Translations under genes and position numbers: made by a program
The notes under the pieces: generated by a model
What the model was told of the DNA's origin: nothing
The model's database searches: none
Seen by the model: the letters and a program-made list of their open reading frames with translations, nothing else
Virus record (IMG/VR): IMGVR_UViG_3300038988_000159
Location: 1-29,377 of that record
Length of the DNA stretch: 29,377 nucleotides
Direction: 5' to 3' (one strand)
Source: a virus
Taxonomy: Duplodnaviria; Caudoviricetes
In this document: in pieces, positions 1,781 to 18,288 of the stretch
Position numbering within the stretch: position 1 is the stretch's first letter
Layout of the letters: each line of letters opens with the position of its first letter

Positions 1781-1791
1781 TTGCTCCTCCT

Positions 1792-1854
1792 GTGGCTGCT
1801 CATCAGGCCCGGCGCGCCACCGCCGGACGACCGGCCCACAAGGGCCGGTTTCGC
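1792..1854 (-). ncRNA. Type II hammerhead ribozyme
   Basis: Minus strand: GC-GAAA-CCGGCCC-UUGU-GGGCCGG-UC^-GUCCGGCG-GUGGCG-CGCCGGGC-CUGAUGA-GC-A-GCCAC. All core nucleotides are present, with a 2-bp stem II and a loop I GUGGC / 3' GCCAC pseudoknot. Predicted cleavage between 1829 and 1828. Confidence 0.93.
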
Positions 1855-1855
1855 G

Positions 1856-2146
1856 CTAGGACAAGGTCTCCTTGAGGGTCTTGCCCACTTTGAGGACCAC
1901 GGCCCGCTTGGCCGGGATCTGCACGACATCGCCCGTGCTGGGATTGCGGCCCTCACGGGCGGCGTGATCCTTGACGGCCAATTTGCCGATGCCGGGCAGG
2001 GGCACCTCGTGGCCCGCCGCCAGCTCGGCCGCGGCCACGCGGCCCAGACAATCCAGGATGTTCTCGATCATGGTCCGGGTCGCCCCGGACCCGAAGACCC
2101 TTTTGGCCTCGTTGTCCACAGCCGCGATCAGTTCTGCCTTGGTCAT
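1856..2146 (-). CDS. HU/IHF family DNA-binding protein
   Basis: 'MTKAELIAAV...LPGIGKLAVKDHAAREGRNPSTGDVVQIPAKRAVVLKVGKTLKE'. Start trimmed to ATG 2146 (SD AAGGAG). Confidence 0.93.
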   Translation of the reverse strand: MTKAELIAAVDNEAKRVFGSGATRTMIENILDCLGRVAAAELAAGHEVPLPGIGKLAVKDHAAREGRNPSTGDVVQIPAKRAVVLKVGKTLKETLS

Positions 2147-3032: not shown

Positions 3033-3416
3033 CTAGGCCTCCGCGCTCATGCGCAGGTTGAGCTGCACCTCGTCCAGGATGCGGGGCAGCGTGGACTTGC
3101 GCAGCTTGGATTCCAGGGCCAGCATTTTGAGCGCCCGGGCCCGGACCGTCTTGCAGTAGTCGTTCAGCTCGCTCCCGGCGCTGGCTAGGTAGTAGCCGCC
3201 GCCCTCCACGTCCGCGATGGAGCAGATGGGCGTGCCCTCCTCGCGCAGGTCCGTGATGAGCTTGCGCAGGGGCCGGGTGTTGTTGATCTTGTGCTTGTAC
3301 GGCCTGCCGTAGACCCGCTCGAATAACTCGCCCATGCCGATGGCCCGGCCCCGGCCCACGTGCAGGGTGAGTTCCTTGAGCAGCAGCTCGCGTTTCTTGG
3401 CGTGTTCTTCGTTCAT
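3033..3416 (-). CDS. Winged-helix DNA-binding phage protein
   Basis: 'RPLRKLITDLREEGTPICS...GGGYYLA'; start set at ATG 3416 with SD AAAGGAG. Confidence 0.75.
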   Translation of the reverse strand: MNEEHAKKRELLLKELTLHVGRGRAIGMGELFERVYGRPYKHKINNTRPLRKLITDLREEGTPICSIADVEGGGYYLASAGSELNDYCKTVRARALKMLALESKLRKSTLPRILDEVQLNLRMSAEA

Positions 3417-3436
3417 GTCCGTCTCCTTTCCGGCGG

Positions 3437-4594
3437 TCAGACCTGCCGGATCACGTCGCCGGTGACCTGGGGCACGCCCAGCTCGGCGGCCAAGTTGAGG
3501 GCCGCAGTCATGGTGTTGCCCACGGCCAGGGGGTAGCAAAGGGACCGCGTCTCCCGGACGCGGTTGCGGACCACGGGGCCGGTGAGCCGCGCGCGCAGGG
3601 CCTCCACGCCCTCGTCGGTGATGACGCCCGCCATGTCCTTGACCCCGGCCCGCGTGAGCTTGTGCTCCAGGTAGGCGCGCAGCTCCTCACCCAAGGGCCG
3701 CAACTCCAGGACCTCGCAGCGCTGCACGACCTCGCGCACCTGGTAGTTGCCCTGGGCCAGCTTGTGGCGCAGCTCGGGCTGGCCGATGAGGATGATGGAG
3801 AGCAGGCGCCGGAAACCATCCTCCAGCTCGTAGAATCTTTTCAGATGCTTGAGCGTGGCGATAGGCAACCCGTGGGCCTCCTCAATGACCAGACAGTGAG
3901 CCTGGCCGGTGCGCGACGAGTCACGGAGGACCTTGTGGACCTGCCGGAACCGGGCCTCCGCGCTGGAGGCGCTGGTCTCGCCCGGGGCCACCACGTCCAT
4001 GATTGCCTCGGCGATGTGCAGGCTGCGCAGCCGCTTGCCACGCTCCTCGCTGTCCTCCATGCCGAGCACGTAGGGCTCGATGATCCGCACGTTGGGCGAA
4101 TCCTTGTCCACGCGCTCGATGAGGTCGCGGCGCAGGGTGGACTTGCCGGAGCCGGACTCGCCCACCAGGGCCATGAATCCGCCGCTGCGGGCCACATGGA
4201 ACATGGCCTCGCGGATGTAGCGGATCTCGGCCGTCAGGAACACGTCCTCCGGGCCCTGCAGGTCGGCGTTGAACGGGTCCTGGAACAGCCGGAAATGCTT
4301 CTTGGTCTGGGCCAGCAGCGTCTGCCTGCTCAACAGCATGATCTCCTCCTGGGGTTCGGTATGCTCGTTATCGCCGTCGCTCTCGAACAGATCCTTGAGG
4401 CAGTCCTTGCCGACCTTGCGCTCACGCAGGAACGCCAGGATCTTCTCCTCCAGGTTCTTGCGCTCGGTGCGCAGGGGCCAGTTGTTGTGGAGCACGATCC
4501 TGCAGGCCGTGGGCTCGGACACGCCGATGGCCCTGCCCAACGCGGCCTGGCTGATCCCGTGCTTGGCGAGGCAATCCTTGAGACGGTGCAACAT
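3437..4594 (-). CDS. Transposition ATPase (MuB-equivalent, ExeA-like AAA) with N-terminal XRE HTH
   Basis: HTH 'ISQAALGRAIGVSEPTACRIV', Walker A GESGSGKST, Walker B LVIEEAH, 'IILIGQPEL'; abuts the transposase. Confidence 0.92.
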   Translation of the reverse strand: MLHRLKDCLAKHGISQAALGRAIGVSEPTACRIVLHNNWPLRTERKNLEEKILAFLRERKVGKDCLKDLFESDGDNEHTEPQEEIMLLSRQTLLAQTKKHFRLFQDPFNADLQGPEDVFLTAEIRYIREAMFHVARSGGFMALVGESGSGKSTLRRDLIERVDKDSPNVRIIEPYVLGMEDSEERGKRLRSLHIAEAIMDVVAPGETSASSAEARFRQVHKVLRDSSRTGQAHCLVIEEAHGLPIATLKHLKRFYELEDGFRRLLSIILIGQPELRHKLAQGNYQVREVVQRCEVLELRPLGEELRAYLEHKLTRAGVKDMAGVITDEGVEALRARLTGPVVRNRVRETRSLCYPLAVGNTMTAALNLAAELGVPQVTGDVIRQV

Positions 4595-14942: not shown

Positions 14943-16385
14943 ATGCAAAAGGATCTGCGTCTTGAAATCGCCACCGTGGAGCGGGACATCACCTTCCCGG
15001 CTTTCGGCGGCGTGCTGCGCGTCACCGACGACACCCTGCTTTCCCGGGGCGGGGCCCTTGGCCTCAAGCTCTATGACGACATCGAGCGGGATTGCCTGGC
15101 CTATGGCCTGATCACGAAGCGCAAGCTGGCGGTCATCGCCCGGTCCTGGGAGGTGGTCCCCGGCGGCGAGTCGCGCAAGGACAAGAAAGCGGCCGACATG
15201 GCCGCCGCTATGCTCAAAGCCCTGGACTTCGACCGGCTCACCGAGGACCTCCTGGACGCTGTGCTCAAGGGCTTCGCCGTGGGCGAGATCATCTGGGCCT
15301 CTGACGGGTCCACCATCTACCCCGAGGCGGTCAAGCCCAAGGACCAGCGGCGCTTCACCTTCGGCGAGGACTACGCCCTGCGCCTGCTCACGCCCTCGGA
15401 CTTCGTCTTCGGCATGCCCGTGCCCGAGCGCAAGTTCATCGTGCACACCTTCGGCTCCAAGGACGGCAGCCCCCGCGGCCTGGGCCTGGGCTCCCGGCTG
15501 TTCTGGCCGGTGTTCTTCAAGCGCCAGGGAATCCGTTTCTGGCTCACCTTCATCGACAAGTATGGCAGCCCCACGGCCGTGGGCAAATACCCCACAAACA
15601 CCTCCCAGGAGGACAAATCCAGGCTCCTGCAGGCCTTGGACGCCATCTCCCGTGAGGCGGGCGTGGTCATCCCCGAGGGCCTGGCCATCGAGCTGCTTGA
15701 GGCCAAGCGCCAGGGAATCGGGACGCACGAGCAGCTCTGCCGTTACATGGACGAGCAGATCTCCTTCGCCATCCTGGGTGACGCGCCCGGGGCCAAGGAC
15801 TCCGGCGGGGCCCTGGCCAGCGCGGCCATCCTGCGCAACGAGGTGCGTCTGGAGCTGGTCCAGGCCGACGCGGACATGCTCTCCGCCACCCTGAACAAGA
15901 CCCTGCTCGCCTGGATCACGGAGCTGAACGTGCCTGGGGCCGTGCCGCCCCAGGTCTGGCGCGACGCCAAGCCTTCCGAGGATCTCAAGACCCGCTCCGA
16001 GCGGGATAAGAACCTCGTCGAGGTCGGATACCGCCCGACCTTGGAGCACATCACCGAGGCCTACGGCGGCGAATGGGAGCCGGTTCCCGCGTCCGCGCCC
16101 GCCGCGCACCCGGTGGAGCCCGGGCAGGAGTTCGCCGAGGGGCGGTTCCCGGACCAGGAAGCCCTGGACCGGGCCGCCGATGGCCTGCCCGCCGCCCGGC
16201 TGGACCAGGACATGACCGCCATGCTGGAGCCCGTGTTCGAGGCCCTGCGCCGTGGCGACGCCGCCGAGGCCCAGAGCCTCCTGGCCGACGCCTACCCCGG
16301 GCTGGACGCCAAGGGCCTGGAGGACCTGCTGGCCCGGGCCCTGTTCGTCTCCGAGCTGTGGGGGCGGCTCAATGCCGGACGTTGA
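14943..16385 (+). CDS. Portal protein (DUF935 / Mu gp29)
   Basis: 'LLDAVLKGFAVGEIIW', 'FIDKYGSPTAVGKYP', 'DEQIS..ILG'; position after TerL. Confidence 0.93.
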   Translation: MQKDLRLEIATVERDITFPAFGGVLRVTDDTLLSRGGALGLKLYDDIERDCLAYGLITKRKLAVIARSWEVVPGGESRKDKKAADMAAAMLKALDFDRLTEDLLDAVLKGFAVGEIIWASDGSTIYPEAVKPKDQRRFTFGEDYALRLLTPSDFVFGMPVPERKFIVHTFGSKDGSPRGLGLGSRLFWPVFFKRQGIRFWLTFIDKYGSPTAVGKYPTNTSQEDKSRLLQALDAISREAGVVIPEGLAIELLEAKRQGIGTHEQLCRYMDEQISFAILGDAPGAKDSGGALASAAILRNEVRLELVQADADMLSATLNKTLLAWITELNVPGAVPPQVWRDAKPSEDLKTRSERDKNLVEVGYRPTLEHITEAYGGEWEPVPASAPAAHPVEPGQEFAEGRFPDQEALDRAADGLPAARLDQDMTAMLEPVFEALRRGDAAEAQSLLADAYPGLDAKGLEDLLARALFVSELWGRLNAGR

Positions 16386-17595
16386 CCTGTCCTACGCCAT
16401 CGGCCTGCCGCCCAAGGAGGCCGTGGCCTACTTCGAAGCCAAGGGCTACGCCCTGTCCTTCGACTGGCGCGAAGTCTGGCAGGAGGCCCACGCCCGGGCC
16501 TTCACCGTGGCCGGGGTGACCAAGCTCGACGTGCTCAAGGACATCCGGACGACGATGAGCGACGCGCTCAAGCAGGGCCGGACCCTGTCCCAGTTCCGGC
16601 AGGATCTGGAGCCGACGCTTCGGCGCAAGGGCTGGCTGGGCCGCGGCCAGATCGTGGACCAGGCCACGGGCGAGGTGGGCAAACGCCTGGCCCCATATCG
16701 GCTGGAGACCATCTACCGGACCAATATGCAGACGGCCTACATGGCCGGGCGCTGGAAGCAGTTCAAGGCCAACGCCTCCACCCGGCCCTACTGGCGCTAT
16801 GTCGCGGTCATGGACGCCCGCACCCGGCCCGAGCATGCGGCGCTTAACGGCCTGGTCTTTCCCCACGACGACCCCTTCTGGTCCTCCTACTGGCCACCCA
16901 ACGGCTGGCGCTGCCGGTGCCGGGTGGAGGCCCTGGACCGCGAGGATCTGCGCGCCGAGGGGGTCGAGCCTGGGACCAGCTCCAGCCGGATCTCCGAGGT
17001 GAGCGTGCCCTCGGGCCGCGAGCCCGGGGCTCCGCGCGTGGCCGTGGCTCGCTTCGAGGCCAGGCCGGGGTTCTTCGTCTCCCCGGACCCGGGCTGGTCC
17101 TACAACCCGGGCCGGGCGGCCTGGCCCGAGCTGCAGGAGTTGACCGCCCGCAAGATGGCCGCAGCGCCGTGGGAGTTCTCCGCGGCCCTGGCCAGGGAAC
17201 AGGCGGCCGGGCCGGGGTTCGCTCGGTTCTACGCGCGGCCCGAGGGCCGCTGGCCCATCGCGGTACTGCCGGGCGAGGATGCGCGGCTCATCGGAACCGA
17301 CTCGACCGTCGTGCTGCTTTCCGAGGACACCGCGCGGAAGCAGAAGCTGCACCATTCAAAGATGAACGCGGCGGACTATGTCCTGGTCCAGGACGCCATA
17401 GATCGCGGCGAGCGCATCCGCCAGGGCCCCAGGAAGCTGGCGTATGTGCTGGACGACGCGGAGGGCGGCGTCGCCGTGGTCAAGGCGACGAAGACCGGCG
17501 TGGAGGTGTATCTCGTGAGTTCATGGAAGTTTGGCGGGGACGCGAAAGAGAGGGCGCGCGAACTGGCCAGGCTGCGCAGGAAGGCCCTCGAATGA
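16372..17595 (+). CDS. MuF (gp30) head morphogenesis protein with C-terminal PBECR2-like nuclease extension
   Basis: MuF motifs 'RLETIYRTN...YVAVMDARTRPEH...PPNGWRCRC'. After 'DPGWSYNPG' comes a ~130-aa domain 'LSEDTARKQKLHH...DY..VQDAI..G...VVKATKTG.EVYLVS'. Start at ATG 16372. Confidence 0.9.
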   Translation: MPDVDLSYAIGLPPKEAVAYFEAKGYALSFDWREVWQEAHARAFTVAGVTKLDVLKDIRTTMSDALKQGRTLSQFRQDLEPTLRRKGWLGRGQIVDQATGEVGKRLAPYRLETIYRTNMQTAYMAGRWKQFKANASTRPYWRYVAVMDARTRPEHAALNGLVFPHDDPFWSSYWPPNGWRCRCRVEALDREDLRAEGVEPGTSSSRISEVSVPSGREPGAPRVAVARFEARPGFFVSPDPGWSYNPGRAAWPELQELTARKMAAAPWEFSAALAREQAAGPGFARFYARPEGRWPIAVLPGEDARLIGTDSTVVLLSEDTARKQKLHHSKMNAADYVLVQDAIDRGERIRQGPRKLAYVLDDAEGGVAVVKATKTGVEVYLVSSWKFGGDAKERARELARLRRKALE

Positions 17596-17596
17596 G

Positions 17597-17736
17597 CAAG
17601 AGCCCGACCGTCCCCGGCCAGGCTCTTGTTTCTGCGGGCGGCGGGGCCTCCCATCCGCTTGCGCGGGAACCCCGCATGGCGCTCCGGCGTCGCCGCCGTG
17701 CTACGGCAGGGAGAGTATCACCGTGTCGCGCCAGCT
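17597..17736 (-). ncRNA. Putative structured non-coding RNA, antisense to the late operon (family not recognised)
   Basis: Five helices on the minus strand, three capped by GNRA loops (GCGA, GCAA, GGGA), G-U pairs valid only on this strand, and a CUCCC/GGGAG pseudoknot. Confidence 0.75.
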
Positions 17737-17741
17737 TGATC

Positions 17742-17772
17742 ACCATATAAGGGGGAGGCCGAGGCAAGTCAA
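17742..17772 (-). promoter_or_regulatory. Putative antisense sigma70 promoter for the structured RNA
   Basis: TTGACT (17772-17767), then TATATG at 17 bp or TATGGT at 19 bp. Predicted +1 ~17736, just before the first helix. Confidence 0.6.
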
Positions 17773-18288
17773 ATGGACCCGATCCGGCTCAAAATAGACT
17801 CCGACCGCATGGACGAGGCCATGCGCGGCCTAATCTCGGCCGGGCGCGACGCCTCCCCGCTCATGCGGGCCATCGCGGGCGACATGCACGCCGCCGTGGA
17901 GACCAACTTCCGGCTGGAGGGCCGTCCTCCCTGGGCCGGGCTCGCGCCGTCCACCCAGGCGGCCCGGGCCGCCAAGGGATTTTGGCCCGGCAAGATCCTC
18001 CAGCGCACCGGCCCGCTGGCCGCGGCCATCAGCGAGGACTACGACGCCACCAGCGCCGTGGTCGGCACCAAACTGGCTTACGCCGCAGCCCACCAGCTCG
18101 GGGCCAGGACCAAGGCGCACCGCATCGCGCCGCGCCACAAGAAGGCCCTGGCCTTCGGCGGCCGGGTGGTCAAGAGCGTGATGCACCCGGGCTCGGACAT
18201 CCCGGCCCGGCCCTTCCTCTTCCTGGACGACTCGGACGAGGACAAGATCGTCGGCCGGGTCACCGCCTATCTCCAGGGCCTCATCTGA
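17773..18288 (+). CDS. Virion morphogenesis protein (Mu gpG-like)
   Basis: 'NF..EGRP.W..L..ST', 'VGTKLAYAAAHQLG', 'IPARPFL'. Confidence 0.9.
   Translation: MDPIRLKIDSDRMDEAMRGLISAGRDASPLMRAIAGDMHAAVETNFRLEGRPPWAGLAPSTQAARAAKGFWPGKILQRTGPLAAAISEDYDATSAVVGTKLAYAAAHQLGARTKAHRIAPRHKKALAFGGRVVKSVMHPGSDIPARPFLFLDDSDEDKIVGRVTAYLQGLI

Follow-up and report, generated by a model that had tools for sequence, protein, structure and literature searches.

In the 177-nt gap that follows the MuF gene of a Mu-like phage (the whole 29,377-base record analysed here, hereafter the window), an antisense motif of about 100 nt is found. Judged by the strong covariation of its homologs, this element is a real RNA class, and one that is absent from Rfam. 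The explanation that we prefer, with a probability of roughly 0.65 on comparative grounds, is that it is a tRNA-derived decoy RNA, antisense to MuF, which would inhibit the predicted RNase domain of the virion-borne MuF protein.

Genomic setting and the predicted nuclease domain of MuF

The MuF gene sits between the portal and gpG genes, and the start of the gpG-like gene abuts the promoter of the antisense element (Table 1). As in MuF polymorphic toxins, a MuF domain is joined to a C-terminal effector within a phage head module. The predicted PBECR-type domain of the window keeps K323, Q324, H328, Y336 and S383; H328 and S383 fall in conserved PBECR columns, and a His and a Ser form the PBECR active site according to the available text of PMC5512222, where the activity and target of PBECR domains are only predicted. 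A Pfam scan gave no match for the window's own C-terminal domain, while its homologs showed weak PBECR3 matches (three of six in one set; below cut-off in 6 of 51). The nearest named clusters in the Atlas were PBECR3, PBECR2 and MuF_C, with a recognition value below the tool's threshold. The domain was modelled at a pLDDT of 95.6, and its best fold matches, all weak, were BrnT (Z 5.8), CdiA-CT (Z 4.4) and RelE (Z 3.9). A clade profile search returned 1,607 representatives at E 0.001 or better, whereas the single-protein search of GTDB with the window's domain gave 318 pattern matches and no relatives, and the sequence search of solved structures gave nothing useful. At positions 17518-17529 the window reads S-S-W-K where most homologs read S-F-R-R; since two close proteins (P0002 and P0003) have the same change, it may mark a subclade rather than decay. 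Elsewhere in the window, the early operon has a type II hammerhead ribozyme between its HU-like and DUF6874 genes, immediately ahead of a ribosome-binding site.

Table 1 Features of the window discussed in the text
Feature	Position	Strand	Basis or remark
Type II hammerhead ribozyme	1790-1856	-	61.6 bits, gathering 37
MuF (gp30-like) minor head protein, 407 aa, with C-terminal predicted RNase domain	16372..17595	+	Pfam Phage_Mu_F, E 9e-28
PBECR-type predicted RNase domain of MuF	17212..17592	+	Homolog matches, model, motif columns
52-codon ORF across the element	17592..17750	+	Judged not a gene
14-bp hairpin (P5)	17597..17628	-	Not conserved; likely terminator or 3' protecting hairpin
tRNA-like cloverleaf core	17634..17735	-	Covariation, covariance model R1
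Closing stem	17735-17729 with 17640-17634	-	One mismatch in the window
D-like arm	17724-17703	-	
Variable anticodon-like arm	17701-17681	-	
5-nt linker	17680-17676	-	
T-like arm	17675-17641	-	Optional insert hairpin 17666-17655
Loop-loop pseudoknot	D-like loop 17713-17709 with T-like loop 17652-17648	-	
Predicted sigma-70-type promoter	17744..17772	-	-35 at 17772-17767, -10 at 17749-17744, final T missing
gpG-like virion morphogenesis gene	17773..18288	+	Pfam Phage_tail_S, E 5.5e-26

A covarying cloverleaf RNA with a predicted promoter of its own

In the element, a closing stem and a short linker lead into a D-like arm; one base, an arm that varies freely and a linker of five bases then separate this from the T-like arm, which continues into the closing stem. 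Folding is better for the minus strand than for its shuffles (z -3.44, 0 of 200 as good), but the plus strand is not clearly better than its own (z -1.52, 19 of 200). An earlier note on this DNA, made from the letters alone, had likewise placed the fold on the minus strand; the GNRA loops that it adduced are, like the P4 insert, variable or absent among homologs.

Homologs were collected with a 22-letter core pattern, which gave 86 viral loci, 83 of them the element and three of them chance matches. In an alignment of 66 distinct sequences (out of 70, after removal of near-duplicates and mis-cut rows), the four-arm fold had 94.5% of its cells paired with 367 compensatory cells, and none of 500 shuffles scored as high, so that the covariation check proposed in the earlier note came out in favour of an RNA. 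Slid-pairing controls reached only 38-48% paired, and a second covariation test gave 96.6% paired cells and 335 compensatory cells, again with 0 of 500 shuffles as high. The closing stem is 90.1% paired, shows two-sided changes at eight of nine pairs and is recovered by plain folding in 97 of 118 homologs.

The sequences quoted in the earlier note all occur where it had put them, and the homologs support its helices P2, P3 and P4, the last being 99.3% paired with two-sided changes at four of seven pairs. Its outer helix P1 (UGGCGC/GCGCCA), which was to close a three-way junction, is paired in only 66.3% of cells; the homologs instead agree on a four-way cloverleaf with another closing stem. 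This misreading is understandable because the two alternative folds lie about 1 kcal/mol apart in the window (-71.4 versus -70.2 kcal/mol). The P5 hairpin is present in the window but is not conserved, its place being taken in most homologs by a U-rich tail or by another, unrelated hairpin. The anticodon-like arm varies in both length and sequence among homologs.

Because the search pattern had fixed one half of the CUCCC/GGGAG pseudoknot, this contact was tested on loci found from the protein instead, in an alignment fitted to the nested model only. Among 64 distinct protein-first sequences, 317 of 317 cells were paired, including 21 compensatory cells at two of the five pairs, which bears out the pseudoknot drawn in the earlier note. 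Distant members have more complementary variants of the kissing loops; as these sequences vary freely yet stay complementary, it is shape and not sequence that is kept.

A search of Rfam with the element gave no family (best E 0.58-2.4, far below the gathering scores) and no match for 14 related loci, in agreement with the earlier note, which did not recognise it as a tRNA, a riboswitch or a known ribozyme. The asX1 family was considered and rejected, its match having an E of only 1.6 and resting on the P5 hairpin. The RNA clade of the window had no match to the tRNA model, and blastn of the RNA against named phages gave none either.

The element is likely transcribed from its own promoter, as suggested by the upstream signals. 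The TTGACT-N17-TATATG promoter described in the earlier note is present, and its -10 stands at the modal position of the 118 homologs, among which 90 show a -10-like hexamer at a fixed upstream distance (22.6 in shuffles, 44 on the opposite strand); 46 of those 90 also have a -35-like hexamer. On the other side, a strict scan of the window for promoters and terminators gave no site. The window's copy is off consensus at the -10, in the closing stem and at the Arg after the catalytic Ser.

Co-occurrence and co-loss of the RNA and the nuclease motif

On the loci compared, the link of the intact nuclease motif with the RNA is near-complete, and both are lost together. When loci were sought from the protein and the best 80 of 91 relatives were taken, the RNA lay antisense just 3' of the nuclease gene in 79. 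This count is not fully independent, since proteins next to the RNA had served to build the query and some 20 of the 80 contigs also belong to the RNA-first set. The sole miss is a contig that ends at the match (L153), and K-Q-x3-H and the Ser are kept in all 80 loci. Starting from the RNA, the nuclease domain was found at 71 of the 86 viral loci; the other 15 comprise the three chance matches, three short flanks, three copies behind a MuF with another PBECR type, and six orphans. Starting from MuF, the covariance model R1 matched 4 of 37 loci, all from the window's domain clade. One further locus (L024) has a domain of this clade and no R1 match, with a variant seen by eye only. Where the MuF tip is an ADP-ribosyltransferase, a small downstream ORF takes the place of the RNA, and in a locus with a PBECR2 tip (L007) MuF overlaps gpG (3239-3751) and leaves no room for an RNA.

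Phage B23 has a MuF without the motif, and the co-loss is best seen among the 18 relatives of this protein. Twelve of them lack the Lys, His and Ser as well as the RNA; the other six keep K-Q-x3-H, five with the RNA and one on a contig that ends, and three motif-intact relatives are 75-76% identical to the motif-less query. The tips of Mu and of a Klebsiella phage are degenerate, their MuF overlaps the next gene and no RNA is present; the Mu domain is called inactive in the available text of PMC5512222. The 12 motif-less loci represent only two lineages and, together with Mu and the Klebsiella phage, about four lineages rather than 14 events. No nuclease with an intact motif was found to lack the RNA at loci that had the flank and belonged to a clade within reach of the model. 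RNA-bearing and RNA-less loci could not be told apart by the folding z-scores of their 3' flanks, and another structured RNA is possible behind L218 and L221. In some RNA-bearing distant members (L339, L340 and L243), an Arg-type motif replaces the His.

The arrangement of the pair shows some variation. The MuF stop codon lies inside the element in L045, L053, L054, L081 and L088, and the pair persists where an extra gene stands between nuclease gene and RNA, namely a methyltransferase-like ORF in L067 and a small antisense ORF in L028 (3655-4180).

Sister RNAs and probable kinship with tRNA

A sister nuclease clade, homologous by hhalign (88%, E 3e-6, with the His aligned), has tRNA-like elements in the same slot and orientation 3' of MuF (L226-L246). 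By eye, canonical D- and T-loops are present in all 20 sister loci among the 26 examined. Two of nine loci submitted passed the Rfam tRNA threshold, and ARAGORN calls two sister loci as tRNA. The anticodon arms of these RNAs are odd, and two of the RNAs stand in tandem in L238 and L240; it may be that some sister genes of this kind are wrongly annotated as pseudo-tRNAs. In phage SuMu, a distant member whose T-loop looks canonical is still recognised by R1, at 21.9 bits. From the canonical loops of the sister RNAs and the T-loop of SuMu, we infer that the RNA likely descends from tRNA. Further nuclease clades appear, by eye, to go with further RNA types. Additional distinct structured antisense elements were noticed by eye behind PBECR2-type and other MuF tips (L247-L250, L031, L022, L023, L343-L345 and L205).

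Copies of the RNA apart from the nuclease

Among 87 matches in cellular genomes, the domain was present within 1.8 kb in 35 and absent in 42, while six had short flanks and four were chance matches; these figures include five of nine script-flagged rows that were reclassified by eye. By record titles, the class occurs in many bacterial groups. The domain was also absent elsewhere in nine orphan-bearing genomes and in one complete provirus, with positive controls being detected. The earlier note would have expected the RNA only where the nuclease domain is present; the 42 copies without the domain are, at face value, the independent occurrence that the note had said would speak against its proposal.

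In a neighbour tally that covered 75 of 116 ORFs and had no background control, eight orphans were flanked by integrases, resolvases or transposases, eight stood beside Mu-like head or Mor genes, and six beside restriction, methylase, SIR2 or Uma2 genes. An orphan RNA is located at one end of a CRISPR array in four unrelated genomes (L283, 1730-1900; L290; L317; L329), among six loci picked without a background control. Copies can also form arrays, with five in L325, two in L299 and mixed types in L075 and L093. A precedent for such arrays is offered by polymorphic toxins, whose immunity genes also occur as orphans, and we infer that RNA-only copies are orphan immunity genes.

Two further observations concern such copies. 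In one genome (G023; L325 and L341-L346), 15 matches to the PBECR-type domain were counted, some of which stand in tandem and several of which belong to MuF-like proteins. The RNA occurs there in at least 32 copies (150 of 6,610 candidates were scored), many of them arrayed with differing kissing-loop sequences, and the whole looks like a domesticated toxin-immunity repertoire. In addition, the Mu-like elements of L075, L093, L112, L291 and L328 have an unusual order of major head gene, decoration gene and protease and no adjacent MuF. Upstream of their head genes lie orphan RNAs, singly or in greater number and in part of mixed type. These elements are possibly satellites.

A proposed decoy antitoxin and other readings of the RNA

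An intact nuclease that was not seen without the RNA at the loci covered, an RNA that is often alone, and the disappearance of both together form the pattern of an antitoxin. Several BECR toxins cut tRNA according to the available text of PMC5512222, which would make a tRNA-shaped RNA without a fixed anticodon a natural decoy. With the fold redrawn as a cloverleaf, a tRNA decoy is also a closer analogy than the ToxI-type H-pseudoknot repeat. We therefore picture the following course. The RNA would be made constitutively, lysogens included, and would mimic the elbow and closing stem of a tRNA. The PBECR domain would cut tRNA or another essential RNA, and an RNA with no conserved anticodon would occupy this enzyme instead of decoding. 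The producer might thereby be protected during late MuF synthesis, and also when a related phage injects the same effector, while other phages, mobile elements and hosts may keep orphan copies for the same protection. The earlier note's proposal of an antisense RNA as immunity against the MuF nuclease thus gains comparative support from the covariation, the 79 of 80 loci, the co-loss and the lack of a conserved peptide, with a fold that differs from the one it drew. The decoy antitoxin is weakened by how often the RNA occurs without the domain (42 of 87 genome matches), which is also compatible with an RNA that has a separate role.

Such a role is what one alternative supposes, in which the RNA is a tRNA mimic directed at host machinery (anti-phage tRNA nucleases, the ribosome or stringent-response sensors) and is linked to the nuclease by offsetting tRNA damage rather than by binding the enzyme. 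The many orphans in genomes without a cognate domain and the closeness of the sister RNAs to real tRNAs agree with this, as does the co-loss with the catalytic motif. We nevertheless consider it unlikely, as each nuclease clade seems to own an RNA type, suggesting pairwise recognition, and as the unconstrained anticodon-like arm makes decoding unlikely. The tight linkage and the co-loss could also reflect a positive partner, that is, a cofactor, activator, scaffold or processed substrate in a packaged and injected ribonucleoprotein of MuF, and RNA binding by MuF-C domains is suggested in the available text of PMC5512222. But a lone cofactor would be useless, yet orphans and arrays are common; the RNA has no conserved variable single-stranded segment suited to guiding; and its predicted promoter, a separate one on the opposite strand, suits constitutive rather than late expression. 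We judge a positive partner improbable as well.

The remaining alternatives attract still less belief. Since the element is convergent with MuF and overlaps its last codons in some homologs, it might act on the late MuF-gpG transcript, as a regulator in antisense or in cis. Antisense pairing, though, needs no covarying tertiary fold, the fold is specific to the minus strand, the link persists across the intervening genes of L067 and L028, and orphans have no cis target, which together make regulation very improbable. A pseudoknot with an invariant core, in a phage that also has a hammerhead ribozyme, might bring to mind a new self-cleaving ribozyme; the predicted promoter of its own, the closing stem and the U-rich tail instead indicate a stand-alone transcript, and its tie to the active site of one enzyme and its tRNA-like sister RNAs leave a ribozyme hardly credible. 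As for the 52-codon ORF as a protein immunity gene, it starts at the MuF stop, the usual site of MuF-toxin immunity ORFs in the available text of PMC5576092. We rejected this candidate because its presence, frame and length are not conserved: a spanning ATG ORF is found in only 43 of 117 homologs and is spread over all three frames, element lengths fall 49/42/27 by length modulo 3, and variation tracks base pairs rather than codons. No conserved ORF for a small downstream immunity protein was found among these 117 homologs, and the peptide alternative raised in the earlier note is accordingly disfavoured, with a negligible chance of being right.

Returning to the decoy antitoxin, a wider picture can be drawn, which we offer tentatively and place somewhat on the doubtful side of even. 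Temperate phages may inject MuF-borne tRNA nucleases, against which tRNA-derived decoys that co-diversify clade by clade would protect; orphan arrays, sometimes at CRISPR ends, would be a shared layer of RNA immunity, and the immunity genes would be domesticated tRNAs. If so, orphan arrays near defence genes and CRISPR would amount to a tiny non-coding defence against phage effectors, invisible to protein-based scans. If the RNA is an antitoxin, it would also explain MuF-PBECR genes without an immunity protein. It would help to clone the nuclease and would hint at the substrate of this enzyme, by which the activity and target of PBECR domains become testable.

Comparison with known systems

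This RNA was not found described in the literature searched, from which most subscription journals were absent, so that an earlier description is possible. MuF polymorphic toxins (PMC5576092) and MuF-PBECR effectors (PMC5512222), in the text available for each, share with the window the MuF N-terminus, the swappable C-terminal effector and a putative immunity locus downstream. In the available text of PMC5576092, immunity is ascribed to a small protein ORF (in 89.4% of 191 toxin genes), and an RNA at the immunity slot is not mentioned in the available main text of either paper. A 2026 survey of BECR proteins (bioRxiv 10.64898/2026.08.28.747851) has, in its available part, no terms for an ncRNA or RNA antitoxin.

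The resemblance to tRNA (RF00005) includes four arms, single-base and five-base linkers, a T-like arm stacked on the closing stem, and contact of the D- and T-loops. The RNA differs from tRNA in having no conserved anticodon arm, an optional hairpin in the T-like loop, and a loop contact that is a 5-bp Watson-Crick helix.

Bacterial Y RNAs, the partners of Ro60, are protein-bound RNAs that mimic tRNA, and AbiF is a HEPN-type nuclease; unlike the system of the window, those of AbiF and the Y RNAs are neither BECR nor virion-borne. AbiF and its non-coding RNA, as described in the available text of bioRxiv 10.1101/2025.04.15.648962, resemble it in that a non-repetitive RNA is the partner of a phage-encoded nuclease. 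The DUF3800, drum and skipping-rope motifs are likewise stand-alone structured RNAs with 3' terminators, associated with one protein domain and with several RNA types per family, although the protein family differs from that of the window (PMC5737381, available text).

The closest functional counterpart is type III toxin-antitoxin, in which a pseudoknotted non-coding RNA inhibits a protein endoribonuclease (PMC13682666, available text). The proposed function is the same as in ToxIN, CptIN and TenpIN, and the RNA is pseudoknotted here too, through a loop-loop contact and not an H-type repeat. Pfam scans gave no ToxN, CptN or TenpN toxin family, only Phage_Mu_F and, in homologs, PBECR3 or MuF_C. 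In type III systems, one operon contains tandem H-type repeats upstream and then a terminator that precedes the toxin gene (PMC13682666, available text), whereas the window has a single cloverleaf downstream, on the opposite strand (79 of 80 loci) and with a predicted promoter of its own; its predicted BECR-type domain is fused to a virion protein, and orphan copies are common. Taken together, these comparisons of sequence and arrangement indicate that the RNA class is most likely a tRNA-derived variant of an RNA antitoxin, which, if it is one, would represent an independent origin of RNA immunity, built on a tRNA scaffold and acting on the BECR fold.
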